Under the pieces are notes generated by a model, which made no database searches, was not told the DNA's origin, and was given only the letters and a program-made list of their open reading frames with translations. Position numbers and translations under genes: made by a program. Below, piece after piece: positions 1,235 to 39,046 of a stretch of DNA of 64,000 nucleotides; the stretch's first letter is position 1, and the number at the start of each line of letters is the position of its first letter. The stretch comes from Candidatus Hydrogenedens sp. (GTDB taxonomy: Bacteria; Hydrogenedentota; Hydrogenedentia; Hydrogenedentales; Hydrogenedentaceae). The stretch covers positions 32,001 to 96,000 of the forward strand of contig JBMFRC010000003.1 of assembly GCA_049968235.1 (NCBI GenBank), written 5' to 3'.

Positions 1235-1582
1235 TCTATTTACCAAAAATATTCTGAATATCTGCATATTTATTTCATAAATTATATAAATATGATATTT
1301 GTGCTAATGTATGGTATCTGTGTTTTGTTTTGTAAATCGTCTATTTTTAACAAGTATATTGATTGTAAGTATATAGCGATAAGAGATAGGATAAAACAGA
1401 TATTGACAGAAAAGCAAGGGGAAAAGTATTTGGAGAAAGTATGAAAAATGATATAATAAAATTTCCCCTTTTTCAGTTCTCTTTCTATCTATCAAAATAT
1501 ATAAATCTGTCACATATTGTCGAAACCAAATATTTAATTTATTAAATTACATTTTGGTAGAACGGGATGCTGAACAAGTTGA

Positions 1583-2293: not shown

Positions 2294-2305
2294 TTTGATG
2301 TATTT

Positions 2306-3661: not shown

Positions 3662-3788
3662 TGTTCATATCCTTTTATTTCTTTAGTTATCAGAAGGCAT
3701 ACTAATAAATTACTACTTTTTATCTATAATAAACAAATTGATTGCTGTGTATCCGAGGGAAAAGATGTTTCATGCCAACGAAATTATT

Positions 3789-3817
3789 TTGACAGTCGTT
3801 AAGATATATGGTAAACT
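3789..3817 (+). promoter_or_regulatory. Sigma-70-type promoter of the hrcA operon (TTGACA-N17-TAAACT)
   Basis: TTGACA at 3789-3794, a 17-nt spacer, TAAACT at 3812-3817. It lies immediately upstream of CIRCE. Confidence 0.55.
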
Positions 3818-3821
3818 ATTA

Positions 3822-3848
3822 TTAGCATTCTACCTTAGTGAGTGCTAA
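3822..3848 (+). promoter_or_regulatory. CIRCE operator (HrcA binding site)
   Basis: TTAGCATTC-N9-GAGTGCTAA matches the CIRCE consensus TTAGCACTC-N9-GAGTGCTAA at 17 of 18 positions. It lies between the -10 element and the hrcA start. Confidence 0.9.
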
Positions 3849-3861
3849 AAGGTGTTGTGTT

Positions 3862-4920
3862 ATGAATATGAATTTTCCTCCATTGAACGAACGAGAACGA
3901 ACCGTTTTGGAAGCAGTTGTGCATATATATATTACAACTGCAGAACCTGTGGGTTCACGAACTGTTGTAAAGAAATTGGGCTTAAATTTGAGCCCGGCAA
4001 CTATTCGCAATGTAATGGCGGATTTGGAGGATATGGGTTATCTCACTCAGGTTCATACAAGTTCTGGTAGAGTGCCTACAGATATGGGTTATAAATATTA
4101 CGTTACTTACTTAATGAAGGTTCAGGAGTTAACATTAGCAGAGCGTGAACATATTAAACAGGAATTAACAAAAAAGATAGATTCCGCAGACCAGATTCTT
4201 CGTCAAACGAGCCATTTATTGGCTCTGGCAAGTCATCAGGCGGGACTGGCAGAATTACCGGCTGAAAGCACGGCAGTTATCCGTCGTGTTGAACTTGTCC
4301 CCCTTTTAGAACGACAGCTGGCTATTTTGATAGTGGATAGTTTCGGATGTGTTCACACATCTTCGGTTATTTTAGATAATACCGTATCACCGCAACTTTT
4401 AGAAACATTAAGTAAATTCTTAAACGAATCTTTACTTAATGTTTCGATAGATAATATTTATCCTGTTGTTCGGGAAAGTTTAAAGAAATTCTTTGATGAA
4501 CGCAGGAAATTGGCTGAGTTAGCATTAAAGATTCTGACGCAGGTGGACCCTCCTGCCAATCAGATGTTCTTAGATGGAACCAACAATCTATTTGACCAGC
4601 CAGAATTTCAGGAACCGATAAAGGTGAAAAGTATTATTGGCATCATGGAGGACCCATCTCCATTAGTAAAAGCATTAAGAGAATCCCTCGCTCGTTCTGA
4701 AAACCGACAACGAACTGTTTTAATTGGTTCAGAAACGATGATGAACAATATTAGTGAGTTTGGAGTTATTGCTTCTCCATATCAGTTAGAGGAACAGGAA
4801 GAGCCTGCAGGTTTTATTGGCATTCTGGGACCGAAACGGATGCCTTATGAACGGCTCTCTTCCATCGTAGATTATACAGCGGGAATGGTAGGGAAAATGC
4901 TAACCCGTCTGTGGAGGTAA
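3862..4920 (+). CDS. hrcA: Heat-inducible transcription repressor HrcA
   Basis: LNERERTVLEAVVHIYITTAEPVGSRTV...ATIRNVMADLEDMGYL is a classic HrcA winged-helix N-terminus. It is the first gene of hrcA-grpE-dnaK-dnaJ. The ORF-track start (GTG at 3838) lies inside CIRCE, so the ATG at 3862 (MNMNFPPL) is preferred. Confidence 0.9.
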   Translation: MNMNFPPLNERERTVLEAVVHIYITTAEPVGSRTVVKKLGLNLSPATIRNVMADLEDMGYLTQVHTSSGRVPTDMGYKYYVTYLMKVQELTLAEREHIKQELTKKIDSADQILRQTSHLLALASHQAGLAELPAESTAVIRRVELVPLLERQLAILIVDSFGCVHTSSVILDNTVSPQLLETLSKFLNESLLNVSIDNIYPVVRESLKKFFDERRKLAELALKILTQVDPPANQMFLDGTNNLFDQPEFQEPIKVKSIIGIMEDPSPLVKALRESLARSENRQRTVLIGSETMMNNISEFGVIASPYQLEEQEEPAGFIGILGPKRMPYERLSSIVDYTAGMVGKMLTRLWR

Positions 4921-4972
4921 CTGTATAATTTTATTTAAACTATTTTGAGTTGTAAAAATCATAGGTAAAGGA

Positions 4973-5629
4973 GTGGTGATTTTATATATGGAAAACGGGA
5001 AATCGGAATTAGAGAAAAAATTTGAACAGGATAAAGAAAGCACTGCATCCGATTCTGAAATTATAAGACGGGCTTCTATAGTTCCTCCTTCTTTAGAGGA
5101 ACCAGTGGAACAGGAAACTGTTTCAAAATCGAACTCTCTGGAAGAAATTTCTAAATTGTTTGAAGAAAAGACAAAAGAATTAGAAGAATTAAAAGACCGT
5201 TATCTCCGTGTCTGTGCGGAATATGACAATTATCGAAAACGAACAGTGCGGGAGATAAAAGAAATTCGTGAAGTAGCCACAGAACAATTGGTTAGGGACC
5301 TACTTCCTGTCTTAGATAATTTTGAAAGGGCTTTACAACATGTTGTGGACCCGGAGGACGCTTTTGCTTCGGGTATTCGTATGGTCTTTTCTCAATTGAA
5401 AGACACACTCATGGCACGCGGTTTGCTACCTATAGAAGCGATAGGACAACCGTTCGATCCCAATGTTCATGAGGCAATAGCCCAAATGGAAACAGAACAA
5501 CCGGAGGGAACGGTAGTCCAGGAATATCAAAAGGGTTATTTATTCGGTAAACGCGTGCTACGACCTGCAAAGGTTGTAGTAAGCAAAAGACCGGAGCAAA
5601 TAACTGAAAGTAATGAAGAGAATAAATAA
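4973..5629 (+). CDS. grpE: Nucleotide exchange factor GrpE
   Basis: LRVCAEYDNYRKRTVREIKE and the downstream GrpE coiled-coil and beta-domain motifs. Positioned between hrcA and dnaK. The true start may be the ATG at 4988. Confidence 0.9.
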   Translation: MVILYMENGKSELEKKFEQDKESTASDSEIIRRASIVPPSLEEPVEQETVSKSNSLEEISKLFEEKTKELEELKDRYLRVCAEYDNYRKRTVREIKEIREVATEQLVRDLLPVLDNFERALQHVVDPEDAFASGIRMVFSQLKDTLMARGLLPIEAIGQPFDPNVHEAIAQMETEQPEGTVVQEYQKGYLFGKRVLRPAKVVVSKRPEQITESNEENK

Positions 5630-5702
5630 TTAAATTTTTTGAAAAATATGTTCTATAATGAAACATTTTATTAAAATTTTATAAAAGGAGGTTGAAAGAC
5701 CT

Positions 5703-7604
5703 ATGGGAAAAGTTATAGGAATTGATTTAGGAACAACAAATTCCTGTGTTGCGGTGATGGAAGGTGGCGAACCTGTAGTCATTGCAAATGCAGAAGGGAA
5801 CCGCACAACACCTTCTGTGGTAGGTTTTACAAAGGATGGAGAACGATTGGTGGGTGCTATTGCAAAACGGCAGGCAGTTACCAATCCCCAGAATACCGTA
5901 TTTTCAATTAAGAGATTTATGGGTCGTCGTTATCATGAAGCAACAGAAGAAATTAAGCGTGTCCCATATAAAGTAACGGAAGCCTCAAATGGAGATTGTC
6001 AGGTAGAAATTCATGGCAAGGCTTATAAACCCCCCGAGATTTCTGCGATGATTCTTCAAAAAATGAAGGAAACCGCAGAAGCCTATTTAGGGACAAAAGT
6101 TACGCAAGCAGTTATTACAGTCCCTGCATACTTCAACGACTCTCAAAGACAAGCAACCAAAGATGCCGGTAAAATTGCTGGACTGGAAGTTCTGCGGATA
6201 ATCAATGAGCCAACAGCAGCAGCTCTGGCTTATGGTTTAAATAAGAAAAAGGATGAAAAGATAGCCGTTTACGATTTAGGTGGTGGAACTTTCGATATTT
6301 CTATACTGGCTATCGGTGATGACAGTTTTGAAGTATTGAGTACGAACGGAGATACCCATTTAGGTGGTGATGATTTTGACCAACGCGTAATAGACTGGTT
6401 AGCGGGTGAATTTCTGAAGGACCAGGGTATAGATTTGCGAAAAGACCCGATGGCATTGCAGAGATTGAAAGAAGCGGCAGAAAAAGCAAAGTGTGAATTA
6501 TCCACCACAATGAGCACGGATATTAATCTGCCCTTTATCTCAGCAGATGCGTCAGGTCCGAAACACTTAAATTATACACTGACACGGGCAAAATTGGAGC
6601 AACTTTGTGATGATTTACTACAACGGACAAAGGGACCCTGTTTACAAGCATTGCAGGACGCGGGCTTAAAAGCAAGTGATATTGATGAGGTTATCCTTGT
6701 CGGTGGTATGACACGGATGCCCGCAGTTATACGCCTTGTTCAGGATTTATTCGGAAAAGAACCACATCGAGGTGTAAATCCGGACGAAGTGGTTGCAATA
6801 GGTGCAGCAATTCAAGGTGGCGTTCTTGCGGGTGAAGTAAAAGACATTCTATTGCTGGATGTTACTCCTCTATCATTAGGTATTGAAACATTAGGAGGCG
6901 TTTGCACCAAGTTAATTGAACGGAATACAACAATCCCTGTTAACAAACGGCAGATATTTACAACGGCTGCAGATAATCAGACCTCTGTAACTATCCATGT
7001 GCTTCAAGGAGAGCGTGAGATGGCAAGGGATAACCGCACATTAGGTCGGTTTGACCTTGTAGGTATTCCGCCAGCACCACGTGGTGTCCCGCAAATTGAA
7101 GTAACCTTTGATATCGACGCAAATGGTATATTACATGTTTCAGCAAAAGACCTTGCTACCGGCAAGGAACAAAAAATACGTATCGAAAGTTCCAGTGGAC
7201 TGACAGAAGAAGAAATCCAAAAGATGGTGAAAGAAGCAGAACAACATGCGGAGGAAGATAAAAAACGTCGTAAGGAAATAGAAATACGCAACAATGCAGA
7301 TTCTCTGTTGTATAGCACGGAGAAACTGTTAAAAGAATACGGCGATAAGGTTTCTGGACCTGAAAAAGCAGAGGTAGAGTCCGCTCTGGAAGAATTACGC
7401 AAAGCCTTAGCAGGAGACCGTATTGAAGAGATAGAATCCGCAATAAATAAAGTAACTTCCGCAACGCATAAATTATCAGAAGCCATGTATCGTTCTGCAA
7501 CTCAGGCAAAAGGTCCTTCTACAGAACAAACAACCCAGACTTCATCAGACGGCGGAAACTCTTCGTCGGAGGGTGAAGGTGGGCAACGTGTTGTAGATGT
7601 ATAA
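5703..7604 (+). CDS. dnaK: Molecular chaperone DnaK (Hsp70)
   Basis: [32 protein letters not shown] and the other Hsp70 signatures. SD AAGGAGG is present. Confidence 0.97.
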
Positions 7605-7606
7605 AA

Positions 7607-7650
7607 GGAAGACCTCAATCTATCGAATAGGACTTCTGCCTTTTTGTATA
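7607..7650 (+). terminator. Possible imperfect rho-independent terminator after dnaK
   Basis: An imperfect inverted repeat (AGGAAGACC ... GGACTTCT) followed by TTTTTG. Confidence 0.3.
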
Positions 7651-7687
7651 ATACAGCATAAATCGTAGTAGGTGATGAGTAGTAAAT

Positions 7688-8833
7688 ATGGTTCGTGGTA
7701 AGGACTTATATGAAATATTAGGTGTCCCGAAGAACGCTTCGCAGGACGAGATTCGTCGTGCTTACTTAAAATTAGCACACAAATACCATCCGGATAAAAC
7801 CGGCGGAGACAAAGAGGCGGAAGAAAAATTAAAAGAAATCAATGCGGCGTATGATATTCTTAAAAATCCTGAGAAAAGGGCACAATATGACCGCTACGGT
7901 ACGGTTGATGGTCAACCCTTTGATATGGGTAATTTCACCGGTGGTTTCCGTGGCTTCACGGAAGGCTTTGGAGAAGGTTTTGAATCGCCGTTTGACGACC
8001 TGTTTGATATGATTTTTGGCTCCGGTACCCGTCGAACGGGTCGCCGGAGCAATGCCCAGCGTGGTAGCGATGTTGAAACCACATTAACAATAACATTAAA
8101 AGAGTCTGCCACCGGAGCCAGAAAAAAAGTCCGTTATATTTGTAAAGAACAATGTAGCGAATGTCATGGAACAGGTGCAGAACCGGGTTCCAAATTGGAG
8201 GTTTGTCCTCAATGTGGAGGGACAGGACAAATACGGGCTTCTCATGGATTTTTCAGCATTACACGGACCTGTCCTCAATGTCGTGGAGAGGGGAAATATA
8301 TATCACGACCCTGTATGCGTTGTAGCGGACAGGGGAGAATTTCCTCAACACGCGAAACAGAAATAAACATTCCACCGGGTGTGGATGCCGGGACAACTTT
8401 GCGTTCCGTAGGTGATGGTGAAGCAGGAATAGGGGGAGGTCCTCCGGGGGATTTATATGTTCATTTACAGATAAAAGAACATCCTTTATTCGAGCGTAAG
8501 GGTAGTGATTTGTATTGTGAAGTTCCGGTAACATTGTCTCAAGCAATTTCCGGAACAGTCATTAAAGCACCTACGCTCATTGATGGAATGATTGACCTAA
8601 CCATTCCTGAAGGCACACAATCCGGAGACCTTTTAAGAAAAAAAGGCTTGGGGATGCCTCGATTGAATAATCGCGGAAGAGGTGACTTATACTACAAAAT
8701 TGTGGTTGAAATACCCGTTCGTCTATCCAAACACCAGCAAGACCTGCTCCGAGAACTGGATGATTTAGCCAATGCCAAAAATTACCCCAAATATTGGAAA
8801 TTCCGTGAACTCAAAGAAAAAAATTTTGATTAA
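7688..8833 (+). CDS. dnaJ: Molecular chaperone DnaJ (Hsp40)
   Basis: J-domain with HPD (KYHPDK), a G/F-rich region, and four CxxCxGxG zinc-finger repeats (CSECHGTG, CPQCGGTG, CPQCRGEG, CMRCSGQG). Confidence 0.95.
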   Translation: MVRGKDLYEILGVPKNASQDEIRRAYLKLAHKYHPDKTGGDKEAEEKLKEINAAYDILKNPEKRAQYDRYGTVDGQPFDMGNFTGGFRGFTEGFGEGFESPFDDLFDMIFGSGTRRTGRRSNAQRGSDVETTLTITLKESATGARKKVRYICKEQCSECHGTGAEPGSKLEVCPQCGGTGQIRASHGFFSITRTCPQCRGEGKYISRPCMRCSGQGRISSTRETEINIPPGVDAGTTLRSVGDGEAGIGGGPPGDLYVHLQIKEHPLFERKGSDLYCEVPVTLSQAISGTVIKAPTLIDGMIDLTIPEGTQSGDLLRKKGLGMPRLNNRGRGDLYYKIVVEIPVRLSKHQQDLLRELDDLANAKNYPKYWKFRELKEKNFD

Positions 8834-29128: not shown

Positions 29129-29186
29129 TCGAGACCTCTAAATAAGTTATCCGAGTTAGGTAGTATATAAAACAGTGTATAGAAAT

Positions 29187-29225
29187 GAGACCTCTGAACC
29201 ATTATACTAATTGTTCAGAAGTCTC
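29187..29225 (-). promoter_or_regulatory. Leader hairpin in the cytochrome 5'UTR, with a duplicate of its 3' arm overlapping the SD
   Basis: Plus-strand GAGACCTCTGAAC-N13-GTTCAGAAGTCTC (12 of 13 positions complementary). A second GAGACCTCT sits at 29131-29139, immediately 5' of the start codon and covering the putative SD AGAGG. Confidence 0.4.
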
Positions 29226-29544
29226 ATTTGCAAATTGATAATAAGTTAATTTAAAGGGCGGAAAATATTTTGTTATACATTAGTCTGTATTTTGATGGTG
29301 AAATGGGAATCTTTTATTTCATAATGTGAAATATTGTCCCATATTAAATTAAGTAATTTTCATGCTTTTATATGTTTATTTATACTATCTATGAATTATT
29401 GCCTTCTTTGTTAATCTGTTTTATTAATAATTTATTCTATTCATTTTATCAGTTGAATTGCTGTCATTGGGACTATTCTTCGCAATTGTAATTCAGGGAT
29501 TATCCCATGATAGGTGGTGATGTAATAATCTTGACCGGGTTTGT

Positions 29545-31386
29545 CTATGCAATGTAAACATCTATGGGATTATATTTATTATGGAGGAATAGGGCATCGC
29601 GGAAGGTTCCCGTTTTTTGAAATTGTAGTTTCTCTATAAAAGAAATCAGTGGTATATCATTGGGATTTACATAAATAAGCCAGCGATTTTTGGGAAATCG
29701 GCTTTTGATTTGATTAAATAGAATCTGGAAGTTATCCTGAATATCTTTATTCATATAATCATCCGGGTTATGAAAATATATATACACTACGGATAGATTG
29801 GGGATTGTATGCATGTGTATTTTTATCAATCCACGAGGTTTCGTCTTTTTATCGATGATGACCCATTCTTCATATTCTCTGCTTGTATTTAAAATCTCCT
29901 GCTCTTTCTCATGCCTTGTGGTTGTTAAAATATTTCCCCATTGAAGTGTAAAATAGATATTGCTATTCCATGTTTCCCATTGAGCAAGCCAATCTTCATC
30001 TTGTGGTCGTAGAGGTCGGATAGAAATATGTTCTTTAAAGAAACTACGGAAAATATGTTTCAGGATAGATAATTTGCCGGGTTTTTGAACATCTCTATTT
30101 ATAGGCATATCTGCGAAAAGAGCAACCCCGGCATTGTTTAACTCCTGATAGCGGACAATTACTTCTTCTATCCATTTTCGTTGTGCTATACACCAGTCCT
30201 TTCTAGGTTCCGTTACTTTTCCTGTATATCGATAATGAATTGTTCCATGTCCACCTCCGCAGAAATTTTGAGCCCAGCAAGTAATACATGCAGGAGTTGT
30301 ATTAATCCCCAGACGATATAGACATTCTGCATCTTTCAGAGGGATTTCGTCCTTCCGTATATTTCCCATGTAGCAGAGGTTCTTTTTATAGTATAAATAT
30401 CCACCATACACATCGCCAGTAGATGTTATAAACCATTCTTGTATACCTGCGGGGTCTCTTCGTTTTGTAGGGATACCATGTTGAATGTTCTGAAACAACT
30501 GCATAATGGGTTCTAATATGTATCTGTTCCCTTTTTTTAATTGTTGTGTATATACGGCGGTTAGGTGTGTTAGTTCCTGGAAAAAGGTTCCAATATTCCT
30601 ATCCGGATTTAAGGCAAGGGGCGAAAATATGTCAATTAGTATTTTTTTTACATCATAATTAAAAACTTTTTCAATGGTTGGAGTAAAAGGTAATTCTTCG
30701 GGAAGGAAAAGAATGTGTCCGTTCTGACTATTTAGAAAATTATGGAACACTGATTCATTAATGGTTTCTATTTGTTGTACAAGTTCAGCGGAAATTTTCG
30801 GAAAGACTAAAAATAGTTTTCCCATATCCTCTATTTTCAATTTCGCACGGATATAATCCGACATAGGGAGATATAGATTTATAACCACATTTTTATCTCT
30901 ATTCGGGCACTGTTCATGAATGAATAAATTAAGTGTATTAAGAATATCCTGAATAGTTTCGTATTTTTGGTGAAGCCATAAATTTATCTGAAATTTTGGG
31001 TTTGCCTGAATGTAAGGTAATGCTTTTAATATTGCCAATGGAATTATCTTTTGAATGAGAGAGAAATTGGATTCATCTATCAAGAAGGAAAGTGTGTTGA
31101 GATGGAGAGTTTGGGTAAGAGATTGAACCCAATTCTCTATTTTTTGATATTTCAAAATAGAGCCAATTGAACGCAGGTATTCGAGTTCATCCCAGACTTC
31201 CCGTAGTTCTTTTTCCGTATATTGTGTAGATAGGATATTTTGTATTTTATGTTGTGTATTTTCTGGGTAGTATTGCAGGGTATCGTATGTAATTTTATCG
31301 CATTCAAAACAGAAAGTATCAAACACATCTACAGCAAAGAATCTTCCCTCTCGTTCAAAGGTATATATAGGTCTTATCTTGCTCAT
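29545..31386 (-). CDS. Radical-SAM-like/SPASM-domain protein with a degenerate SAM-cluster motif (putative peptide-maturation or scaffold protein)
   Basis: C-terminal region GDVYGGYLYYKKNLCYMGNIRKDEIPL...CITCWAQNFCGGGHG matches the SPASM pattern (G.VYPC...GNI...CxxCx5CxGGC). N-terminus RFFAVDVFDTFCFECDKITYDTLQYY resembles the pre-core region of peptide-modifying rSAMs. At the position where the rSAM motif L.L.ITE.CNL.C.YC is expected, the sequence is LSFLIDESNFSLIQ, with no CxxxCxxC. The C-terminal ~200 aa start IRPLRPQDEDWLAQW, which is GNAT-like. Confidence 0.55.
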   Translation of the reverse strand: MSKIRPIYTFEREGRFFAVDVFDTFCFECDKITYDTLQYYPENTQHKIQNILSTQYTEKELREVWDELEYLRSIGSILKYQKIENWVQSLTQTLHLNTLSFLIDESNFSLIQKIIPLAILKALPYIQANPKFQINLWLHQKYETIQDILNTLNLFIHEQCPNRDKNVVINLYLPMSDYIRAKLKIEDMGKLFLVFPKISAELVQQIETINESVFHNFLNSQNGHILFLPEELPFTPTIEKVFNYDVKKILIDIFSPLALNPDRNIGTFFQELTHLTAVYTQQLKKGNRYILEPIMQLFQNIQHGIPTKRRDPAGIQEWFITSTGDVYGGYLYYKKNLCYMGNIRKDEIPLKDAECLYRLGINTTPACITCWAQNFCGGGHGTIHYRYTGKVTEPRKDWCIAQRKWIEEVIVRYQELNNAGVALFADMPINRDVQKPGKLSILKHIFRSFFKEHISIRPLRPQDEDWLAQWETWNSNIYFTLQWGNILTTTRHEKEQEILNTSREYEEWVIIDKKTKPRGLIKIHMHTIPNLSVVYIYFHNPDDYMNKDIQDNFQILFNQIKSRFPKNRWLIYVNPNDIPLISFIEKLQFQKTGTFRDALFLHNKYNPIDVYIA

Positions 31387-32225
31387 TAATAAATCCCCAG
31401 CGTGCCTTTGTATCTACTATAGTTTTCCATTATCTTAAATAAAGAAATTCCGATAAAAGTCCAGATAATACAACTAGCACAAAGCCAATAGAAGCAGGGG
31501 TGTAAGAAAACGGACATAAATTGTCCCGGTGCCATTTGTTGACCTTTTACAAGCACATATTTTAAGCAGATAGAAGCGTCTGTGATAGGTAAAGCATGCA
31601 TAAAAGCAGATATAAACCAGCCCTGCTGTAAAAATTCTTCACGGGCAAAGATGGCTAATGCGAACAATGCCATTCGCACAATAATTGTCAGTTGTCCTAC
31701 TTGTTTAAATACGAGCACCAGTCCTCCTACCAAAAAACCAAATCCCAATAAATTGATAAAGGACAGGGTTAGTAGAACAACAACAGGGATAGGGTCAAAA
31801 TAAAGTTTTCCACCGACACTAATCACAACAAAATAAACCATAATAGCGGAATAAAGAATTGTTGTTACTGACGCAACCACGGCACGGGCAAGAAAATTCG
31901 TTACCAGACCATAAGGGCTCATACATAATTGTTCTAACACACCCGTTTGTGCCATACCCTGAATTCCCTGTGTGAACATGCCAATTACGCCGAAGGCAAA
32001 TAATCCGATAATAAAGCCCAGAATATAGTTTGTGGCACGTGTCGGGTCATCCAGTTGATTTATTCCCTTTTCGATTGCGGGCTGGCTATAAAAAAAACCA
32101 GCAATGAGTATCATGAGCATCCCATAGCCAATAATCAGTCCTGTTAATGTACGGAACCAGTAGCGTCGGGTGATAATCCATCCACGTATTATCTCTGCTT
32201 TCATAATGAGTAGAAAACCAAGCAT
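31386..32225 (-). CDS. ABC-2 type transporter permease
   Basis: About 6 TM helices in 279 aa. Sits directly downstream of an ABC ATPase and overlaps the next gene by 1 nt. Confidence 0.7.
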   Translation of the reverse strand: MLGFLLIMKAEIIRGWIITRRYWFRTLTGLIIGYGMLMILIAGFFYSQPAIEKGINQLDDPTRATNYILGFIIGLFAFGVIGMFTQGIQGMAQTGVLEQLCMSPYGLVTNFLARAVVASVTTILYSAIMVYFVVISVGGKLYFDPIPVVVLLTLSFINLLGFGFLVGGLVLVFKQVGQLTIIVRMALFALAIFAREEFLQQGWFISAFMHALPITDASICLKYVLVKGQQMAPGQFMSVFLHPCFYWLCASCIIWTFIGISLFKIMENYSRYKGTLGIY

Positions 32226-32229
32226 GATA

Positions 32230-33309
32230 TTATTCCTGTTCTTGTGAATTTATCGCATCAAATACGGGTTTTTCACCTGTAAGTTGTAAAAAGACATATT
32301 CCAGATTTACCTGTTTTTGTTGTATGGAGCGTAATTGATATTTTTTCCTACGAAGTGTTTCAAATAGAAGATATAATGCTTCTGACCGTTCTTCATACGG
32401 TTCCGGTACCTGCACCGTAATTGTAGGACCATCCGCCGTCAGGTCTGATTGGAGAAAAATAATCTGCGGACCAAGAGCATCGAGGTCCCCATCTGCCAGG
32501 TTACGGTCTAATCGCAGGGAAAAGATTTGTTTTGAAAATAGTTCCAGCAGTTCAGAAGTAGGTTTGCAGGTAATAAGTTTTCCCTTGTTAATAATTCCAA
32601 TACGATCACAGAGTTCTTGAGCCACATGCATATCATGAGTAGTAACCAGCACAGAACGACCATATTTTCGGGTCAGTTCCAGAATTTTGTCTTTAATGGA
32701 GCGACTGCTTTGCACATCCAGACCCGTAGTAGGTTCATCTAACAGAATAATTTTGGGGTCAGCAATCAGAGCGATGCATATCGCTAATTTTTGCTTCTGT
32801 CCTCGTGATAGTTTGCGAACTTCTATGTCTTTTTTGTCATTCAACCCGATAAAATCAAGTAGTTGATGGGCTCTTTCTTTGAGGATTTTTCCGCGAATAT
32901 TTCGCAAATTTCCATAATAATAAAGATTTTCAAGAGGTGTCAGGGGCCAGATACTGGTTCGTGTTCCTTCAAGCACAACGCCGATTTGTGAAAGGACCTG
33001 TTTCCGTTTCTTTTCTACATTCATCCCATCCACATAAACTGTTCCACTATCCGGTTTTACTAGTCCTGAAATCATTTTTACCGTGGTTGTTTTTCCAGCA
33101 CCATTGGGACCCAATAATCCCATAATTTCACCGGGCATAATACCAAAAGTAATTTTATCTGCTGCACATGCTTCTTTCTTTTTTATTAAACTCCTCTTAC
33201 CTGTTTCCTCGTCTTTATAAAGAAAGTGAGATGTGTGAAAGGTCTTTGATACCGCATCAAGATAAACCGTATATTTTTTTATATTTGTATTCAATTCATT
33301 TTTATACAT
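32230..33309 (-). CDS. ABC transporter ATP-binding protein
   Basis: Walker A GLLGPNGAGKTTT, ABC signature LSRGQKQKL, Walker B ILLDEPTTGLD. Confidence 0.9.
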   Translation of the reverse strand: MYKNELNTNIKKYTVYLDAVSKTFHTSHFLYKDEETGKRSLIKKKEACAADKITFGIMPGEIMGLLGPNGAGKTTTVKMISGLVKPDSGTVYVDGMNVEKKRKQVLSQIGVVLEGTRTSIWPLTPLENLYYYGNLRNIRGKILKERAHQLLDFIGLNDKKDIEVRKLSRGQKQKLAICIALIADPKIILLDEPTTGLDVQSSRSIKDKILELTRKYGRSVLVTTHDMHVAQELCDRIGIINKGKLITCKPTSELLELFSKQIFSLRLDRNLADGDLDALGPQIIFLQSDLTADGPTITVQVPEPYEERSEALYLLFETLRRKKYQLRSIQQKQVNLEYVFLQLTGEKPVFDAINSQEQE

Positions 33310-34007
33310 TATGAAACTCCACCTCCTTCAAATAATGTCCTTTCTAATTCGTCCATACATTTATCGGGGTCATTTATCTCCTGCAACTTGTCTAAATACT
33401 CAAGGTAATTGCTTTCCATATTACGAATGAAATGTAGAATTGTTACAAAACCCAGGTCATTTGTAACATGGTAAAGAATGCTTATGATAATAGAGAATAT
33501 CAAAAATTCGATGTTCTGGCGTAGTTGATTTTGAAAAATATGTTCATGCACCAATGTAAAAGTGAGGGATACGATAAGAATCGCAATAGCGGGACTTCCC
33601 ATTATCCCTATCAGAATAGGTTGGATTGTAGCCCGATAAATAATCTCCTCTGTAAGTGCAACTGTAAAAGTCTTTCCTAATAACACCGGCGAAAGAAATG
33701 AGAAACGGAACACCTGTAAAAAGGATAGAAATTGATTTTTTACAATAGAATTAAAGCCTACTGTAATAAGAAATCCGATGGTATATAAAATATGTCCCAA
33801 TACTAATCCCACTATCCAATTAGGCACGAAAAATAAATTTCTGGGGAGTATTTGCTGGATAAATAGATAAAAAATCGCACAAATAAGTAAAAGGGATTGA
33901 ATAATTTTTACAATTGTAGTTAATTTCTGAATCTGGAAAAAATTGCGACATAATTCCAGCAGGAAATTCAAGGAGAAGAGGACTACAAGAATTATTTTGA
34001 TATTCAC
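33309..34007 (-). CDS. CPBP-family intramembrane metalloprotease (CAAX protease/Abi-like)
   Basis: Polytopic membrane protein with motif 1 EEIIYR (EExxxR), FTLVH (FxxxH) and a YHVTND motif. GTG start overlaps the GNAT stop (GTGA). Confidence 0.65.
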   Translation of the reverse strand: MNIKIILVVLFSLNFLLELCRNFFQIQKLTTIVKIIQSLLLICAIFYLFIQQILPRNLFFVPNWIVGLVLGHILYTIGFLITVGFNSIVKNQFLSFLQVFRFSFLSPVLLGKTFTVALTEEIIYRATIQPILIGIMGSPAIAILIVSLTFTLVHEHIFQNQLRQNIEFLIFSIIISILYHVTNDLGFVTILHFIRNMESNYLEYLDKLQEINDPDKCMDELERTLFEGGGVS

Positions 34008-34624
34008 GAAGACTTCTCCAGATAATTCTTTATGCTTTCAGCCATTTTTTGTAGTGTAATTTCCCTTGTATGTTCGGTATTTTTTTCACGCCAGATTTGA
34101 AACTCCTGTTTTAATAATCCGTAAACATAAACATCATGCCAGACCCCGTTTCGTGTAATGTGTTCCTTTAGTGTGAGTTCTCGTTGGGCACCGAGAAATT
34201 CCAATAATTTCCATGATGGTTTATTGAAAGCATAAATAATAGCGGTAATGCGGTGTAAATTGAGTTCATCAAACGCATATTCCAATGCACGAAAAACATT
34301 AATTCCTGTCGTCAAATGATTCCGATGTTCCGGTGCTATATATACATCCAGATTGCAGGAACGATTCCGCCAGCTGATATTTTGTAGTGAAATCATTCCT
34401 AAAGGACCCTCCGGTGAATCAACGATGAAATATACACCAGCAGGGATAGGACTACCTGTATTTTTACTTAAAAACCCGATAATCTGTTCGCGAATAGTTC
34501 TTGGAGAACGGGCAGGGTCACCATACAGGAAGTATTGAAAATCTTCATCTTCCATCCAGCGGATAAGTGTGTCGAGGTCATCGCGGTCTGCTCTGCGGAT
34601 AAAAGATTTTGTAATAATACTCAC
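34004..34624 (-). CDS. GNAT-family N-acetyltransferase (RimL/RimJ-like)
   Basis: IRRADRDDLDTLIRWMED... N-terminus and GNAT fold length (206 aa). A paralogue lies upstream. Confidence 0.6.
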   Translation of the reverse strand: MSIITKSFIRRADRDDLDTLIRWMEDEDFQYFLYGDPARSPRTIREQIIGFLSKNTGSPIPAGVYFIVDSPEGPLGMISLQNISWRNRSCNLDVYIAPEHRNHLTTGINVFRALEYAFDELNLHRITAIIYAFNKPSWKLLEFLGAQRELTLKEHITRNGVWHDVYVYGLLKQEFQIWREKNTEHTREITLQKMAESIKNYLEKSS

Positions 34625-34637
34625 GAAAAACCCCTTC

Positions 34638-35183
34638 TTATTTCAATTCGACCGACAAAGTATTACTATTTTGAAATTTTGCCCATGTCTCAAGATTATG
34701 CCATTTCCCACAGGTGAATAGCACCTCTCGCATACATCCTTCACATTGATATGAATGATTTAATAGAAAGTTTCGCAGTCTTTCTTCCACATCCAGACAG
34801 GTTGTCATTAATTTTCTTAAATGGAGTTGTTGAAATGCCCGCACCTCAATAAATTCTAATGCTTCACCAATCAGAGCGGATTCATTATCGTAGGTCTCAT
34901 TTTCAAACAGGAGCATCATCTCCCCAAAAAGTGCCTCCGCATTTATCCCTTTTAGGATAACAAAGCCGGAAATATCTCCAATTTTATTTTCAACAGCATA
35001 AAAGGACTGAGCAGTATCTTTATGTTGAAGAAGTTCCTCCAACTCACTTAGATTGGGCATGAGCGGTTCTCGTTTCGTATCCAGCAGGGTGGCAAAGATG
35101 GGTTTGTGCAGGTAAAAACGGAGCAGTTCTTTTGCATCAAAACGGTCCGCATTGCGAATAGTCGCATAAGTCTTTTTTATCAT
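34638..35183 (-). CDS. GNAT-like acetyltransferase paralogue
   Basis: IRNADRFDAKELLRFYLHK... parallels the adjacent GNAT N-terminus. 181 aa. Confidence 0.45.
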   Translation of the reverse strand: MIKKTYATIRNADRFDAKELLRFYLHKPIFATLLDTKREPLMPNLSELEELLQHKDTAQSFYAVENKIGDISGFVILKGINAEALFGEMMLLFENETYDNESALIGEALEFIEVRAFQQLHLRKLMTTCLDVEERLRNFLLNHSYQCEGCMREVLFTCGKWHNLETWAKFQNSNTLSVELK

Positions 35184-35219
35184 ATAGAAAGGTTATATCC
35201 CGCAGTTAAAATTACACGC

Positions 35220-35247
35220 TTCCATGCCCTAAAATGGCATGAAGACA
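35220..35247 (-). promoter_or_regulatory. Intercistronic stem-loop between the small-peptide genes and the downstream enzyme genes (possible attenuator or processing site)
   Basis: Imperfect inverted repeat TCCATGCCC-taaaat-GGCATGAAG on the plus strand. It lies between the stop of the last small ORF and the GNAT start. Confidence 0.35.
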
Positions 35248-35280
35248 ACTGAAAAAATCCCTGCTTATAATAACGAAAAG

Positions 35281-35400
35281 TTAAAAGCCAATTTCGTTTT
35301 TCTTTTCGTAGCGGAAATCCTGCCAGGCTCGCCACACCGCATTAAAAAAGTTTGTAAAGGCATCAGCTTTCCGTAATGTCAACTTTTGAATGTGCTTCAT
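35281..35400 (-). CDS. Small peptide E (39 aa from MKHIQKLTL...; alternative start 35415)
   Basis: Minus-strand ORF MKHIQKLTLRKADAFTNFFNAVWRAWQDFRYEKKNEIGF. Shares the MKHI+K/R N-terminus with the neighbouring small ORFs. Not in the ORF track (under 60 aa). Confidence 0.45.
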   Translation of the reverse strand: MKHIQKLTLRKADAFTNFFNAVWRAWQDFRYEKKNEIGF

Positions 35401-35451
35401 GTTCTTATTTCCCATATTACAAGTTTTAGGTGTTAATATATAAAAATTTAT

Positions 35452-35652
35452 TTAACTGCTTGAAGAGGTTGTTGTAGTAGTTGTTGTCCCGGTGCTCGGC
35501 AATGGAGACTCCGGGTCCTTATTCTTGAAAACAGGAATAAAAATTTTTATTATATCTTCAATAAATTTTATTATATTAACTGTGGTATAGGGGAAATCAC
35601 TCGCGGATAGGGGTTGAGTTATCTTCTGAATATGTATCTTATTACGCACCAT
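35452..35652 (-). CDS. Small peptide D (66 aa), Ser/Thr-rich C-terminus
   Basis: MVRNKIHIQKITQPLSAS...PSTGTTTTTTTSSSS. SD GGAAG upstream of the ATG at 35652. Overlaps the end of peptide A in another frame. Confidence 0.45.
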   Translation of the reverse strand: MVRNKIHIQKITQPLSASDFPYTTVNIIKFIEDIIKIFIPVFKNKDPESPLPSTGTTTTTTTSSSS

Positions 35653-35809
35653 ACTTCCCACTTCCGTCCAATGTTGAGGTATCTTCTGTATTTCTCGTTT
35701 CGAGTAAAGTTCGAACTGCTGTCAATATCTGAAGAAAAATTGTCAAAATAACATCAATCGTAACCGCTTGAACAGGTCTACTGTATGTCTGTCTTTTAAT
35801 ATGTTTCAT
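35642..35809 (-). CDS. Small peptide A (55 aa)
   Basis: MKHIKRQTYSRPVQAVTIDVILTIFLQILTAVRTLLETRNTEDTSTLDGSGKYGA. Its N-terminus and hydrophobic core (ILTIFLQILTAV) are paralogous to peptide B (ILTLIANILSVV). Not in the ORF track. Confidence 0.55.
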   Translation of the reverse strand: MKHIKRQTYSRPVQAVTIDVILTIFLQILTAVRTLLETRNTEDTSTLDGSGKYGA

Positions 35810-35884
35810 AAAAATACCTTTAAACTATAAATCTATTATACTAAATATAAAGTATTTTACAAACTACAAAGATTCTGTATCTTA

Positions 35885-36070
35885 CTAACTGGTCGTAGTA
35901 TTTGTTGTTTCCTGAGGTTTTTTTACTTCCGCTAAAGGCAAGAAGAAATTTGTAAGCACAGAAAGCAAAAAACAAAGAAATGCCTGATAATCACTTGTGA
36001 TATTTGTGCAAAAGTTAGAACTTTGCTGTGCCCTTGATGGTTTAACAGTGATACATTGGATTCTCTTCAT
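35885..36070 (-). CDS. Small peptide C (61 aa)
   Basis: MKRIQCITVKPSRAQQSSNFCTNITSDYQAFLCFLLSVLTNFFLPLAEVKKPQETTNTTTS. Strong SD AAGGAG 9 nt upstream. The only member with Cys (3). Confidence 0.55.
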   Translation of the reverse strand: MKRIQCITVKPSRAQQSSNFCTNITSDYQAFLCFLLSVLTNFFLPLAEVKKPQETTNTTTS

Positions 36071-36094
36071 TATTTCTATCTCCTTTTATTTAGA

Positions 36095-36250
36095 CTACGA
36101 AGAAGAGGAGGTGCCTCCTTCTTTAGCGACAAAAGCCTGAGCGACGACAGATAAAATATTCGCAATCAGGGTTAATATCTGTCCAATACTCAAAGTTGTC
36201 TCTATTTGTGCTTTGTGTAATGTGGCGGTTAATCTTCTTATATGTTTCAT
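36095..36250 (-). CDS. Small peptide B (51 aa)
   Basis: MKHIRRLTATLHKAQIETTLSIGQILTLIANILSVVAQAFVAKEGGTSSSS. SD GGGAG 8 nt upstream. Not in the ORF track. Incompatible with the overlapping 71-aa track ORF 36123..36338, which is considered spurious. Confidence 0.55.
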   Translation of the reverse strand: MKHIRRLTATLHKAQIETTLSIGQILTLIANILSVVAQAFVAKEGGTSSSS

Positions 36251-36475
36251 TTTCCAACTCCCGTATATTGGTTATAATATTATCTAATATAGAATATTGT
36301 TTACATTCTATTTCATTACAGATTTCTTTTAATATCATATATTAATTTAATACCAAATTACATAAAAAAGTTTTCCCTTTCCACCTCATAATAACACGGA
36401 ATTATAAGATATATTTTACAAAATAAGAAGCAATATAGGAAATATTTAACAGAATTTAAGTATATCAATAACTTT

Positions 36476-39046
36476 TTATTTCTTTAATCGAGCACTGCTC
36501 ATCATAAATAACAATATACCGATAAATATAAAATCAAACAGATATTTCAATAAGGAATTGTTGTTTAAGGATTTGTTTATACAGCCACAAACATTTGTTG
36601 CTCCAGTTTCTTCCTTACTGATATTTCCATCACCATTCGTATCTATTTGATTAAATATTTCATGGGTTAACCATGGATACACAATACTTAACTCATCCCA
36701 ACTTAACATATTATCGCCGTTCGCATCAAACAATGAAAACCGTTTCTTGAGTATATTCTTTAATTCCTTTAATGTCATTGGACATGTACCCGCAGAAACC
36801 GTAATATTAACTACTGATTCCGGCTCTACCTGAGTTCCTGCGGGTGGATATTGAGTTATGACATTGCCTGTAGCTATGTCATTACTACACTCCTGGGTAA
36901 CATCCCCAACCTTCAGGTTTGCAGATTTTATAACATTTTTTGCAGAATCCTGGTTCATACCAACTACATCCGGAACCACATTTAATCCGACATACTGAGA
37001 CACTAATTGTGGATAAGATTTATTTTCTTTTATATACCATACTTTTTCAAAATCCCAACCATTAAAAGTGGCTTGCTGTTTCATTTTTGCCGTTGTTTTA
37101 CCCGTGCCACCTGCAGAATTTTTTTGTCCGGAAGTCTCTGTGTCCCAATATGAATTACTTACCGTACCGGAATGGTTATATCCCAAAAGCCCCCCAATAT
37201 ACGAAGCCCCGGAAGAATTGGACACAGAACCTGCTGAATAACAATAATTTATTGTGCCTCTATAATTTCCACCTACCAGTCCACCACTGTATAGAACTCC
37301 TGAAACAGACCCTATGGCATAACAGTTGCTAATTTCATTATTATTCTCACCTACCAGACCACCAACATTTATATGTCCCTGAGTTGTAACCTCCGCACAA
37401 CAACTACTTGCCTTACCCGAATTTGAACCTATTGCCCCACCAATAGAACTATATCCTGTTACAGACCCCTCTGCATGACAACCACTTACTGTACCATAAT
37501 TCTGACCTGCTAATATGCCTATAGAAGAAATATTCGTATCCCCGGAAACAGAACCTTTTGCATGGCAATTACTCACAGTACCATAATTTCGTCCTATTAA
37601 TATACCGACGGAAGTGGAAGTAACAGAAAGAGTATTTGTATGTCCTGATACGGAACCTTCTACATAACAATTACTTACTGTGCCATAATTTTGTCCTGCC
37701 AATATACCCACGAAAGAAGAACCCGCGACAATAGCATTTTCTATACTTAAATTTTTAACCACACCTTTCATATCAATATAGCCAAAGAAACCAACATAGT
37801 TTTCAGAAGGACGATTTATCGTTAGACCAACTATTTTATGCCCTTTACCATCAAAATTGCCTTTGAATGGATGCTCTTTATCTGCCCCTATAGGAGGCAA
37901 ATCTATTCCTGCAACATTAATATCATTAATTAATTCATAATCGCCATTCAAAGGATAAATGTCCCCTATCTTTTGCAATTCCCCGACATTATCTACAAGG
38001 ATAGTCCCCGGATTAATATTTCGCAGGAAAGGATATTGATATGGATAGGAATACACATCACTGCTGACATAGATTCTCCAAACTGTTTCAAAATCCCAGC
38101 CCACATAAGTGTTCTTTAATTTCATTTCTTCCGCTGTTTTCCCTGTTCCCCCATCAGAAGCACTCTGTCCGGATGCTATTATGTCCCAGTAACAATTACT
38201 AACATAGCCACTTTCTTTCTTTGCAATAAGCCCGCCTGTTATATGTTCTTCCGTTGAAGTCGCTGTTGACCGAACAGTTCCTCGACAATAACAATTAGTT
38301 ACACCATTTTCATTGCTGTTATTGTAGCCAATAAGTCCCGCAACATAATTCTTCCCTGTAATAGAACTTGAACTGTAACTATTATCAACAGAGCCTATAT
38401 TTTCACCTATCAATCCGCCAACACGATTTATTCCTGTTATAGATGCAAGATTATAACACTGACTTACTGTTCCCAAATTTTGACCCGTAATACCGCCAAC
38501 ATAATCCGTTCCTTTTACCGTTCCGCTGTTAACACAACTCTGTAATACTACACCGAAATTCCGACCGACAATCCCACCAACATTTGAATTACCTTTAATT
38601 GATATATTTTCTAAACGGAGATTATGGACTTTCCCACCAGCATCAACATATCCAAATAATCCAATATCATCCTCATCTCCCCGCGATATAACAAGACCTT
38701 TTATCTTATATCCTTTGCCATTAAAATCACCTGTAAAAGGACTATTAAATGTTCCTATGGGTTTAAACCCCGCTTTATCATTCCAGGTCGATGTGCTACT
38801 TGCGTCAATATCTTCTGTCAATTCATATTCCGCACTTAACGGGTAATTTGCATCATTACCTATTTTCTGTAATTCCTCAATACTGTTTATCTGGATTACA
38901 GTTGCACCATAACTGTTTCCGAAATAGAAACTCATGCAAAAAATAAAAAATAAACAAAAGGGGAAATATATGGTCTTTTTTGAAAAACTTCGATTATTCA
39001 TCAAACAGCTCCTTGTTATTAATAAAATTACATGCAATAAACGCAA
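36476..39046 (-). CDS. Large surface protein with two blocks of GLUG-motif repeats, a PASTA-like domain, a dockerin/EF-hand-like Ca-binding pair and a C-terminal hydrophobic anchor
   Basis: Repeated VGG(I/L)(V/I)GxNxGx(V/I) units (GGIVGRNFGVV, VGGITGQNLGTV, VGGLIGENIGSV, VAGLIGYN...; a second block GILAGQNYGTV, GILIGRNYGTV, GGLVGEN...). PASTA-like VVPDVVGMNQDSAKNVIKSANLKVGDV. DANGDNMLSWDEL and DTNGDGNISKEE. N-terminal signal; C-terminal TM plus KK tail. Confidence 0.6.
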   Translation of the reverse strand: MRLLHVILLITRSCLMNNRSFSKKTIYFPFCLFFIFCMSFYFGNSYGATVIQINSIEELQKIGNDANYPLSAEYELTEDIDASSTSTWNDKAGFKPIGTFNSPFTGDFNGKGYKIKGLVISRGDEDDIGLFGYVDAGGKVHNLRLENISIKGNSNVGGIVGRNFGVVLQSCVNSGTVKGTDYVGGITGQNLGTVSQCYNLASITGINRVGGLIGENIGSVDNSYSSSSITGKNYVAGLIGYNNSNENGVTNCYCRGTVRSTATSTEEHITGGLIAKKESGYVSNCYWDIIASGQSASDGGTGKTAEEMKLKNTYVGWDFETVWRIYVSSDVYSYPYQYPFLRNINPGTILVDNVGELQKIGDIYPLNGDYELINDINVAGIDLPPIGADKEHPFKGNFDGKGHKIVGLTINRPSENYVGFFGYIDMKGVVKNLSIENAIVAGSSFVGILAGQNYGTVSNCYVEGSVSGHTNTLSVTSTSVGILIGRNYGTVSNCHAKGSVSGDTNISSIGILAGQNYGTVSGCHAEGSVTGYSSIGGAIGSNSGKASSCCAEVTTQGHINVGGLVGENNNEISNCYAIGSVSGVLYSGGLVGGNYRGTINYCYSAGSVSNSSGASYIGGLLGYNHSGTVSNSYWDTETSGQKNSAGGTGKTTAKMKQQATFNGWDFEKVWYIKENKSYPQLVSQYVGLNVVPDVVGMNQDSAKNVIKSANLKVGDVTQECSNDIATGNVITQYPPAGTQVEPESVVNITVSAGTCPMTLKELKNILKKRFSLFDANGDNMLSWDELSIVYPWLTHEIFNQIDTNGDGNISKEETGATNVCGCINKSLNNNSLLKYLFDFIFIGILLFMMSSARLKK

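Follow-up and report, generated by a model that had tools for sequence, protein, structure and literature searches.

We examined a gene cluster on a 64,000-nt stretch of a Candidatus Hydrogenedens sp. metagenome-assembled genome (MAG; assembly GCA_049968235.1, contig JBMFRC010000003.1, forward-strand positions 32,001 to 96,000), hereafter the window, whose numbering is used for all coordinates. The cluster occupies positions 29545-36250 and comprises eleven open reading frames (ORFs), all on the minus strand: five short ORFs that we call pepA to pepE, two acetyltransferase genes of the GNAT superfamily, a CPBP-type intramembrane protease gene, an ABC-2 type transporter pair, and the gene for a 613-aa protein that resembles the peptide maturase CteB and may act on the short peptides. 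The features, in the order of the minus strand, are as follows.

36095-36250, minus strand: pepA, predicted ORF, 51 aa
35885-36070, minus strand: pepB, predicted ORF, 61 aa
35642-35809, minus strand: pepC, predicted ORF, 55 aa
35452-35652, minus strand: pepD, 66 aa counted from the ATG, beginning MVRNKIHIQKIT
35281-35400, minus strand: pepE, 39 aa, MKHIQKLTLRKADAFTNFFNAVWRAWQDFRYEKKNEIGF
35219-35244, minus strand: stem-loop between pepE and GNAT1, CUUCAUGCC-AUUUUAG-GGCAUGGAAG
34638-35183, minus strand: GNAT1, 181 aa, Pfam Acetyltransf_4
34004-34624, minus strand: GNAT2, 206 aa, Pfam Acetyltransf_3
33309-34007, minus strand: CPBP (Rce1-like) glutamic-type intramembrane protease, 232 aa, PF02517
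32230-33309, minus strand: ABC transporter ATPase, DrrA-like, 359 aa, PF00005
31386-32225, minus strand: ABC-2 type permease, 279 aa, family assigned through orthologs
29545-31386, minus strand: 613-aa fusion protein, CteB-like plus GNAT, assigned by PDB profile search and AF2/Foldseek

A first-pass annotation of this DNA, made from its letters alone, had described eleven co-directional minus-strand genes with overlapping starts and stops, and every junction it gave proved to be as described: GNAT2 and the CPBP gene share a GTGA (34004-34007), 1-nt TAATG overlaps link the CPBP and ATPase genes (33309) and the permease and 613-aa genes (31386), and the ATPase and permease genes are 4 nt apart. 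In addition, the ATG of pepD overlaps the 3' end of pepC by 11 nt. The spacers flanking the cluster are AT-rich (GC 0.24 to 0.29), and the upstream neighbor encodes a Glug/PASTA protein, both as first reported; Pfam confirms these domains and finds EF-hand domains in the same protein. The annotation's family calls for the ABC ATPase, the CPBP protease, and two GNATs likewise passed a Pfam scan, with the scores given below.

The 613-aa protein is annotated as a hypothetical protein in the Candidatus Hydrogenedens MAG, has no Pfam match, and in NCBIfam gives weak C-terminal matches to the SCIFF, PapB, and QhpD maturases that fall far under their cutoffs (52.5 bits to TIGR03974, cutoff 425; 54.6 bits to NF040492 not_ScfB, cutoff 855). 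When a profile of 15 homologs was compared with the PDB, residues 3-407 matched CteB (5WGG; E = 9.5e-39) and residues 514-611 matched RimL (E = 5e-4). A Foldseek search with an AF2 model of the protein (pLDDT 76) likewise returned CteB as the top match (E = 2e-13, TMt 0.64), and the C-terminal domain recovered the GNATs SpeG, RimJ, RimL, and YdaF at a TMt of about 0.7. The layout that emerges is a domain resembling the recognition element (RRE) of enzymes for RiPPs, peptides that are synthesized by the ribosome and modified after translation, at residues ~1-90, a CteB-like barrel, a SPASM remnant, a disordered linker at 428-452, and a GNAT domain (GNAT3) at ~453-613.

The radical-SAM motif CxxxCxxC is absent from 15 of 15 aligned homologs and from 72 locus-derived sequences, and in the hidden Markov model (HMM) alignment the DCNLRCKYC of CteB falls within an 18-residue insertion that is deleted in the 613-aa family. 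The SPASM region is also reduced, from CxxCx5Cx3C..C in CteB to CxxCx5C(GGGh)..C, with only four of the seven cysteines kept (C367, C370, C376, and C399) and the Cx3C position occupied by H, C, T, or N; two further invariant cysteines, C26 and C29, lie in an FCFECD motif (residues 25-30) of the RRE-like domain. The 613-aa protein is thus built of an RRE, a dead radical-SAM barrel, a SPASM remnant, a linker, and a GNAT; it is a full-length CteB homolog that keeps the RRE-like N-terminal domain and has lost, besides the loop of the radical-SAM cluster, one auxiliary cluster. The pseudo-radical-SAM/SPASM call of the first-pass annotation thus holds, with the missing motif and the CteB profile match behind it, and its count of two GNATs rises to three modules, the third being fused to the 613-aa protein. 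An exhaustive HMM search of 1.84 billion representatives recovered a discrete family of ~610- to 680-aa proteins down to ~225 bits, then a gap, and then ordinary 450- to 490-aa maturases at ~150 bits; three of the latter in which the motif was read (P0067, P0069, and P0075) have an intact CxxxCxxC.

The five short ORFs had been taken for paralogs from the start, and we concur: jackhmmer merged the five families, which have in common a 14-residue leader, MKHI[RK]x[ILV][ST]..P..A. Every one of them has its own ortholog in the closer loci, and they are real genes evolving under purifying selection, with dN/dS values of 0.01 to 0.34 against four relatives (synonymous sites 0.45 to saturated). Peptide genes stand directly upstream of GNAT1 in 52 loci, in arrays of one gene (2 loci), two (14), three (9), four (4), five (18), or six (5). 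Across 168 distinct peptides the leader logo is M-K-H-[ILV]-[RK]-x-[ILV]-[ST]-x-x-[PKR]-x-x-A (M in 139, K in 132, and H in 148), and the common plan is a cationic leader (charge +3 to +4 over the first 14 residues of the window peptides), a hydrophobic or amphipathic helix of 20 to 25 residues, a Lys that is nearly invariant, and a hydrophilic tail that is short and varies. When the peptides are aligned globally, the Lys column holds 141 Lys and 2 Arg, so that Arg is rare there, whereas the basic leader positions swap Arg and Lys freely (R64/K53 and R43/K31). The Ser/Thr-rich core proposed in the first-pass annotation does not generalize: Ser/Thr-rich tails are confined to the window's clade, tails elsewhere are acidic, Gly-rich, or Pro-rich and variable, and the conserved parts are the leader, the helix, and the one Lys.

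Within this plan the individual peptides differ. The products of pepA to pepC contain transmembrane (TM)-like 19-residue stretches (mean Kyte-Doolittle hydropathy [KD] 1.87 to 1.93), and those of pepD (hydrophobic moment 0.69) and pepE (0.64) are amphipathic. The pepA gene has a GGAG 8 nt upstream and encodes the leader MKHIRRLTATLHKA, the hydrophobic helix QILTLIANILSVVAQAFVA (KD 1.87 over 19 residues), Lys43, and the tail EGGTSSSS; against its orthologs in loci L001, L003, L005, L007, and L008, dN/dS is 0.12 to 0.15. The pepB product consists of the leader MKRIQCITVKPSRA, a hydrophobic helix, KK, and a Thr-rich tail (dN/dS 0.08 versus L005), and it holds three Cys, a conserved core pair (FC..x..LCF) and a single leader residue. 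Such a pair, ~12 residues apart (FC..N...D.Q..LCF), is kept phylum-wide in the pepB family (the window, L017, L027, L030, L075, and others) and was seen in that family alone, the other peptide types being without Cys; it might form a disulfide or contact the Fe-S site that the 613-aa protein still has. The pepC product continues from its leader, MKHIKRQTYSRPVQ, into a hydrophobic helix (dN/dS 0.15 to 0.34), and the pepD product has an amphipathic helix, an NKDPESP motif, and a Thr/Ser tail (dN/dS 0.04 to 0.20). The best conserved peptide is that of pepE, which is always the last peptide gene, is present in 52 loci, and carries an aromatic amphipathic helix (..ADAFTNFFNAVWRAWQDFRYEKKNE..); its dN/dS is 0.014 to 0.056, and its median identity is 54% where that of the 613-aa protein is ~27%. 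In the source MAG pepA to pepD are annotated as hypothetical proteins (ACP5UA_03035-03050, pepA being ACP5UA_03050), and pepE, as 39 or 44 aa, is missing from the protein collection and was therefore left unannotated. Searches of the peptides against Pfam and NCBIfam at E values up to 10 returned noise, with no SCIFF, bacteriocin, or NHLP/Nif11 family match, and a phmmer search of the pepA product against the PDB gave nothing meaningful.

The substrate of CteB, CteA (5WGG chain B), reads MKHIKILNGSTLKDSLKKGGC and begins MKHIKILN, and the leaders of the window family begin in the same way, MKHI[RK]x[ILV][ST]. A single cluster thus holds counterparts of both CteB, which among solved structures is nearest to the 613-aa protein, and its cognate substrate. 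From this we argue that the short ORFs encode substrates whose leader is meant for the 613-aa protein, and that the cluster had a SCIFF-like ancestor and has since lost the radical chemistry. The FCFECD motif of the RRE-like domain is invariant in the 72 Hydrogenedentota sequences and appears as FVFExD in the outgroup proteins P0053, P0055, and P0058. A metal site common to leader His3 (148 of 168 peptides) and this motif is conceivable.

Relatives of the 613-aa protein were found in 191 species-level genomes by a pattern and tblastn scan with one genome per species, and almost all of the best 80 of these are labeled Hydrogenedentota, a phylum for which a 2024 catalog lists 179 genomes and 90 species-level taxa (PMC11406978). 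Synteny was judged on loci from the top 80 wherever the contig was long enough. The order peptides-GNAT1-GNAT2-CPBP-ABC ATPase-permease-613-aa gene is kept in all sufficiently long loci, and so are most of the overlaps: 4 nt between GNAT2 and CPBP in 58 of 63 loci, 4 nt between CPBP and ABC in 45 of 65, and 1 or 4 nt between the permease and 613-aa genes in 67 of 81. Short ORFs with an MKHI leader accompany the 613-aa gene in 52 of the 60 assessable Hydrogenedentota loci, a co-occurrence that the first-pass annotation had proposed to look for, and the cluster behaves as the single conserved functional unit it had envisaged. Flanking-gene clustering across loci found no universally conserved neighbor, the adjoining genes varying by clade, which marks the cluster itself as the unit and the Glug/PASTA and multiheme cytochrome genes as merely its neighbors, not parts of it. 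Median identities to the window among distant loci range from 62% (ABC ATPase), 55% (permease), and 54% (pepE and GNAT2) through 44% (pepB), 40% (pepA), and 37% (GNAT1) to 34% (pepD), 32% (CPBP), and 27% (613-aa protein). On these values the transporter, GNAT2, and pepE are the constrained core of the cluster, and the 613-aa protein evolves fastest, which fits a scaffold rather than a catalyst.

The tailoring, processing, and export genes are of recognizable families. The strongest candidate for catalysis is GNAT2 (Acetyltransf_3, 60.4 bits), the best conserved acyltransferase of the cluster and likely a catalytic N-acyltransferase: its family alignment retains FLYGD, ISWRNRS, and AFN..SW motifs, and its PDB relatives SpeG, YdaF, AAC(6'), and RimJ (E = 1e-11 to 1e-7) are amine N-acetyltransferases. 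GNAT1 scores 28.9 bits to Acetyltransf_4 (cutoff 24.3) and has RimL as its top PDB match (E = 0.04); the N..S motif of GNAT2 was not seen in its family alignment, and it may be a noncatalytic GNAT-fold protein. Pairwise BLASTP among the three GNAT modules revealed no significant similarity, which indicates that they are not recent duplicates. The CPBP gene product, named a CPBP family protease by NCBI, matches PF02517 at 42.7 bits (cutoff 22.4), and the motifs EExxxR (TEEIIYR), FxxxH (FTLVH), and HxxxN (HFIRN) can all be read in it, so that the protease is apparently catalytically intact. The ABC ATPase (PF00005, 108.7 bits) is the best conserved protein of the cluster and has no peptidase domain; assignment to a drug-efflux family, which had been raised as an outcome that would undo the RiPP proposal, is not borne out at the curated threshold (TIGR01188 drrA, 240.7 bits, cutoff 312.45). 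The window permease has no Pfam match, and its profile matched nothing in the PDB; eight of 12 orthologs match PF12698 ABC2_membrane_3 (best E = 4e-6), and the ATPase and adjacent permease are thus predicted to form an ABC-2 type exporter pair.

Between the last peptide gene and GNAT1, 41 of 52 related loci showed on per-locus folding a GC-rich hairpin with a T-tract behind it, which fits a leaky terminator that would raise peptide mRNA above enzyme mRNA. Twelve loci (L013, L018, L022, L025, L028, L038, L052, L053, L063, L079, L081, and L082) share the hairpin arm GAAGTCCCGG (hairpin CCGGGACTTC...GAAGTCCCGG), conserved in sequence as well as position; of 18 occurrences of the conserved 10-mer across 1.25 Mb of loci, 12 lie in the pepE-GNAT1 spacer on the sense strand. 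A hairpin conserved in this way might do more than terminate transcription and might, for instance, be bound by a protein or an RNA. RNAalifold on the pepE-GNAT1 spacers of seven close loci, which align poorly, gave no consensus structure. The single transcription unit first proposed is upheld as far as the conserved coupling goes and qualified by the terminator-like hairpin that parts peptide from enzyme genes in most relatives. A promoter scan found 38 sites against 30.8 +/- 5.3 in shuffles, which is no enrichment, and we accordingly make no promoter claim; the region's top sigma-70-like match (TTGTAA-16-TATAAT, 10/12), at 35835-35862 on the minus strand between pepB and pepC, could be an internal promoter.

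Considered together, we give an even chance to the reading that the cluster is a leader-peptide-guided, RiPP-like maturation and export system, derived from SCIFF/ranthipeptide systems and conserved through the Hydrogenedentota. The chemistry and biological role that we infer for it are as follows. The RRE-like domain of the 613-aa protein would bind the SCIFF-type leader, with the dead radical-SAM body serving as a scaffold, and GNAT chemistry, most likely that of GNAT2, would N-acylate or N-acetylate the conserved Lys, with GNAT1 and GNAT3 acting as partner or substrate-positioning modules. The Lys, which does not tolerate Arg, is favored as the acceptor by analogy with the selidamide GNATs, and a free N terminus seems a less likely acyl acceptor. 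The CPBP protease would then cut off the leader (or the tail) at the membrane, and the ABC-2 transporter would export the products or insert them into the envelope, while the hairpin/terminator 3' of the last peptide gene would keep peptide mRNA in excess of enzyme mRNA. Both the vertical conservation across the phylum and the tightness of purifying selection speak against a conventional bacteriocin and point to a housekeeping role, with envelope, surface-active, or signaling peptides as the putative products, and not to warfare. A more specific form, in which the cluster represents a novel RiPP class inherited vertically by the phylum, with a dead maturase scaffold, GNATs that acylate the invariant Lys, and two to six helical peptides exported as a structural or physiological component of the envelope and not as antibiotics, we put forward tentatively and think on the unlikely side.

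Several observations weigh against a leader-guided RiPP pathway. The similarity to the CteA leader spans 5 to 8 residues and is scored by no profile, so that its force lies in joint occurrence and is not statistical, and neither SCIFF nor other peptide models score the peptides. The pepC product has Arg in place of the usual Lys (ETRNT) and is one of just two Arg in the column, and in the TM-like products of pepA to pepC a Lys at the end of the hydrophobic helix could be a mere membrane-flanking residue. GNAT1 and GNAT3 are weakly conserved, and the canonical Q/RxxGxG/A loop was not seen in them by eye in the window sequences. The window's own stem-loop has a 9-bp stem and no T-run, and its region folds no better than shuffles (z = -0.99); the intercistronic hairpin noted in the first pass is thus present, in the position that the terminator-like hairpin takes in relatives, and by itself is not significant. 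Finally, a regular-expression search found no MKH-leader ORF within 9 to 10 kb in nine enzyme-bearing loci (Hydrogenedentota L002, L032, L057, L072, L021, L024, L040, and L076 and the outgroup L085), which indicates that the enzymes can exist without adjacent peptide genes; in these loci either the peptides are encoded elsewhere or the enzymes have another substrate. The RiPP proposal of the first-pass annotation accordingly gains from the CteB homology and the CteA-like leaders and loses from this minority of loci.

Comparison with described systems places the cluster closest to SCIFF/ranthipeptide loci (CteA/ScfA with CteB/ScfB), the homology of the 613-aa protein to CteB extending through its RRE, barrel, and SPASM regions. 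SCIFF systems are themselves widely and vertically conserved in one lineage, and their role is likewise obscure. The Hydrogenedentota system differs from them in the deleted CxxxCxxC loop and the retention of four of seven SPASM cysteines, in helical cores that are Cys-free or hold two Cys, where SCIFF stands for six Cys in 45 residues, and in its several paralogous precursors, fused GNAT, two additional GNATs, CPBP protease, and ABC-2 exporter. A precedent for the predicted chemistry is offered by the selidamides, in which GNAT-catalyzed acylation of Lys or Orn side chains of RiPPs is established (PMC13647313; see also PMC8784127). Like kamptornamide, phaeornamide, and the nostolysamides, the cluster combines a GNAT-superfamily enzyme with a leader-bearing ribosomal peptide, and to the Lys/Orn side-chain acceptor there corresponds here the near-invariant, Arg-resistant Lys, for which acylation is predicted. 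In contrast to those systems, it has no NHLP/Nif11 leaders, no lanthionine synthetase (no LanM-like gene), and no arginase, and one of its GNATs is fused to a dead radical-SAM scaffold.

Among the alternatives, the one that survives best regards the short ORF products as small membrane proteins that reside in the envelope, for instance accessory subunits or substrates of the ABC-2 transporter, with a housekeeping function in envelope biogenesis; the targets of the GNATs and the CPBP protease would then be these proteins or some other constituent of the envelope. It accommodates the vertical, phylum-wide conservation and explains why permease, ATPase, and pepE are so tightly constrained, and the hydrophobic products of pepA to pepC, with their N-terminal charge of +3 to +4 and hydrophilic C termini, look like N-in single-pass proteins; the nine loci with enzymes and no peptide genes nearby would also be expected. 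The enzyme operon further adjoins rnpA-yidD-yidC-jag-mnmE in five loci, all of them among the nine, although this neighborhood is limited to basal loci and may be plain synteny. What this alternative leaves unexplained is the pairing of a SCIFF-type leader with a CteB homolog that has kept its RRE-like domain, which is a signature of leader-guided modification, as well as the amphipathic rather than TM-like character of pepD and pepE and a Lys that is not interchangeable with Arg where the basic leader residues are. We consider it unlikely, though a serious contender.

A multipeptide bacteriocin locus, with antimicrobial peptides, the CPBP protein as an Abi-type immunity factor, and the ABC-2 transporter for self-protection or export, strikes us as improbable. 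CPBP/Abi proteins and ABC-2 transporters are frequent in bacteriocin loci, both adjoin the peptide genes here, and the peptides are several, helical, and cationic or amphipathic. Nevertheless, the locus is spread over 191 species-level genomes of one phylum with a fixed order, the orthologous peptides are strongly constrained and pepE is nearly invariant, unlike antagonistic peptides, and for this reason we depart from the bacteriocin-like label of the first-pass annotation. There is in addition no C39 peptidase and no bacteriocin family match, the flanking genes depend on clade with none conserved universally, and the intact catalytic motifs of the CPBP protein mean that it need not be a mere immunity protein. 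Where class II bacteriocins have a double-glycine leader and an exporter with a peptidase domain, the Hydrogenedentota leader ends in ..P..A without GG and the ATPase lacks that domain.

Two other peptide systems invite comparison. The streptolysin S sag operon encodes the precursor (sagA), tailoring enzymes (sagBCD), a CPBP protease (sagE), and an ABC-2 exporter (sagGHI), and like our cluster it runs from precursor gene(s) through a hairpin to tailoring enzymes, CPBP protease, and ABC-2 exporter; it differs in that the Hydrogenedentota cluster has no SagBCD cyclodehydratase/dehydrogenase and no conserved heterocyclizable Cys/Ser/Thr-rich core and is phylum-wide, not a sporadic virulence locus. 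Phenol-soluble modulins are small amphipathic helices encoded in the core genome of a lineage and exported by the DrrA-like, ABC-2 type transporter Pmt. They share with our cluster the combination of a small helical amphipathic peptide set and a DrrA-like ABC-2 type transporter across a whole lineage, but they lack a leader, modification enzymes of their own, and a CPBP protease, and the two sets show no sequence similarity.

Maturation could also proceed as in the leader-guided model with the products being secreted, quorum-sensing-type signaling peptides, which we judge decidedly improbable. In Clostridia, ranthipeptides have been linked to regulation, and in staphylococci the autoinducing peptide precursor is processed by a CPBP protease, MroQ, so that SCIFF descent lends this possibility some appeal, and a fixed, conserved peptide such as that of pepE would suit a receptor-ligand pair. 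Against it, no conserved sensor kinase, receptor, or regulator adjoins the cluster in any clade, and a set of two to six distinct peptides, with three TM-like members, is unusual for signals. It is hardly credible, lastly, that the genes are merely adjacent (an independent drug-efflux ABC transporter, stand-alone acetyltransferases, and spurious small ORFs), since order and overlaps are kept though the proteins have diverged to about 25% identity, flanking genes vary by clade, and the short ORFs are under purifying selection, even if the ATPase resembles DrrA-type efflux ATPases at its subcutoff score and transcription could be broken up by the window hairpin and by the promoter-like site that lies within the peptide array.

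The cluster is made of known kinds of parts arranged in RiPP logic, and we found no description of the system in Pfam, NCBIfam, or the literature searched; that it was undescribed, as the first-pass annotation supposed, agrees with the absence of any Pfam or NCBIfam family for it at curated thresholds. That annotation had overlooked the third GNAT domain, the SCIFF ancestry, and the phylum-wide distribution. If the leader-guided model is right, a RiPP radical-SAM maturase has been exapted as a pseudoenzyme scaffold, a route to new chemistry under the same leader recognition, and a diverged relative with a different output would bear on the long-open purpose of SCIFF/ranthipeptide systems. Leader-dependent acylation of Lys by the GNATs would enlarge the small set of tools for genetically encoding lipo- and acyl-peptides. 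The cluster also offers a testable handle on the biology of the uncultured, globally distributed Hydrogenedentota: the gene set is nearly universal in the phylum, its expression is probably high, and it is annotated as hypothetical proteins, with pepE left out altogether.

Some further features of the window and of individual loci are worth recording. An Rfam scan found no known RNA family above threshold in the region; a match to Plastid-ccsA-ndhD-2 at 29181-29232 on the minus strand, in the AT-rich spacer downstream of the cluster, was below threshold (30.4 bits versus 51.5, E = 0.007) and was set aside as probably due to chance. The two 810-aa ORFs of the window are unrelated. P0072 (656 aa) is another CteB-like protein without CxxxCxxC, in which an S24/S26-peptidase-like C-terminal segment and a hydrophobic tail can be read by eye; it hints that fusion of dead radical-SAM/RRE scaffolds to other enzymes could be a recurring theme.

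Flanking genes follow clades. In about 23 loci gltB/gltD lie upstream of the cluster, which we read as clade synteny, and the same reading applies to the seven closest loci, where a PHP-like gene and a 73-aa gene that are absent from this position in the window flank the cluster. In these seven relatives the peptide array is immediately preceded, on its own strand, by the genes for 73- to 78-aa and 290- to 295-aa products (L001, 2940-4051; L003, 2795-3941); the larger product has a PHP-like GNLH(T/S)HT motif, identified by eye, and in the window the Glug/PASTA gene occupies its position. Relative to rnpA-yidD-yidC-jag-mnmE, the enzyme operon is divergent in the outgroup L085 (6262-13871) and directly downstream in L002 (400-10803), L032, L057, and L072. 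L085, the locus of P0055, has FVFExD in place of FCFECD and a full CxxCx5Cx3C, and a gene for a TolC-like outer-membrane factor lies 3' of its pseudo-radical-SAM/GNAT gene. In L005 (Ca. Hydrogenedens terephthalaticus, 106-7928) the cluster is split and inverted between the CPBP and ABC ATPase genes, with ABC-permease-613-aa on the plus strand at 106-3192 and peptides-GNAT-GNAT-CPBP on the minus strand at 4791-7928, reflecting either a rearrangement or a misassembly.

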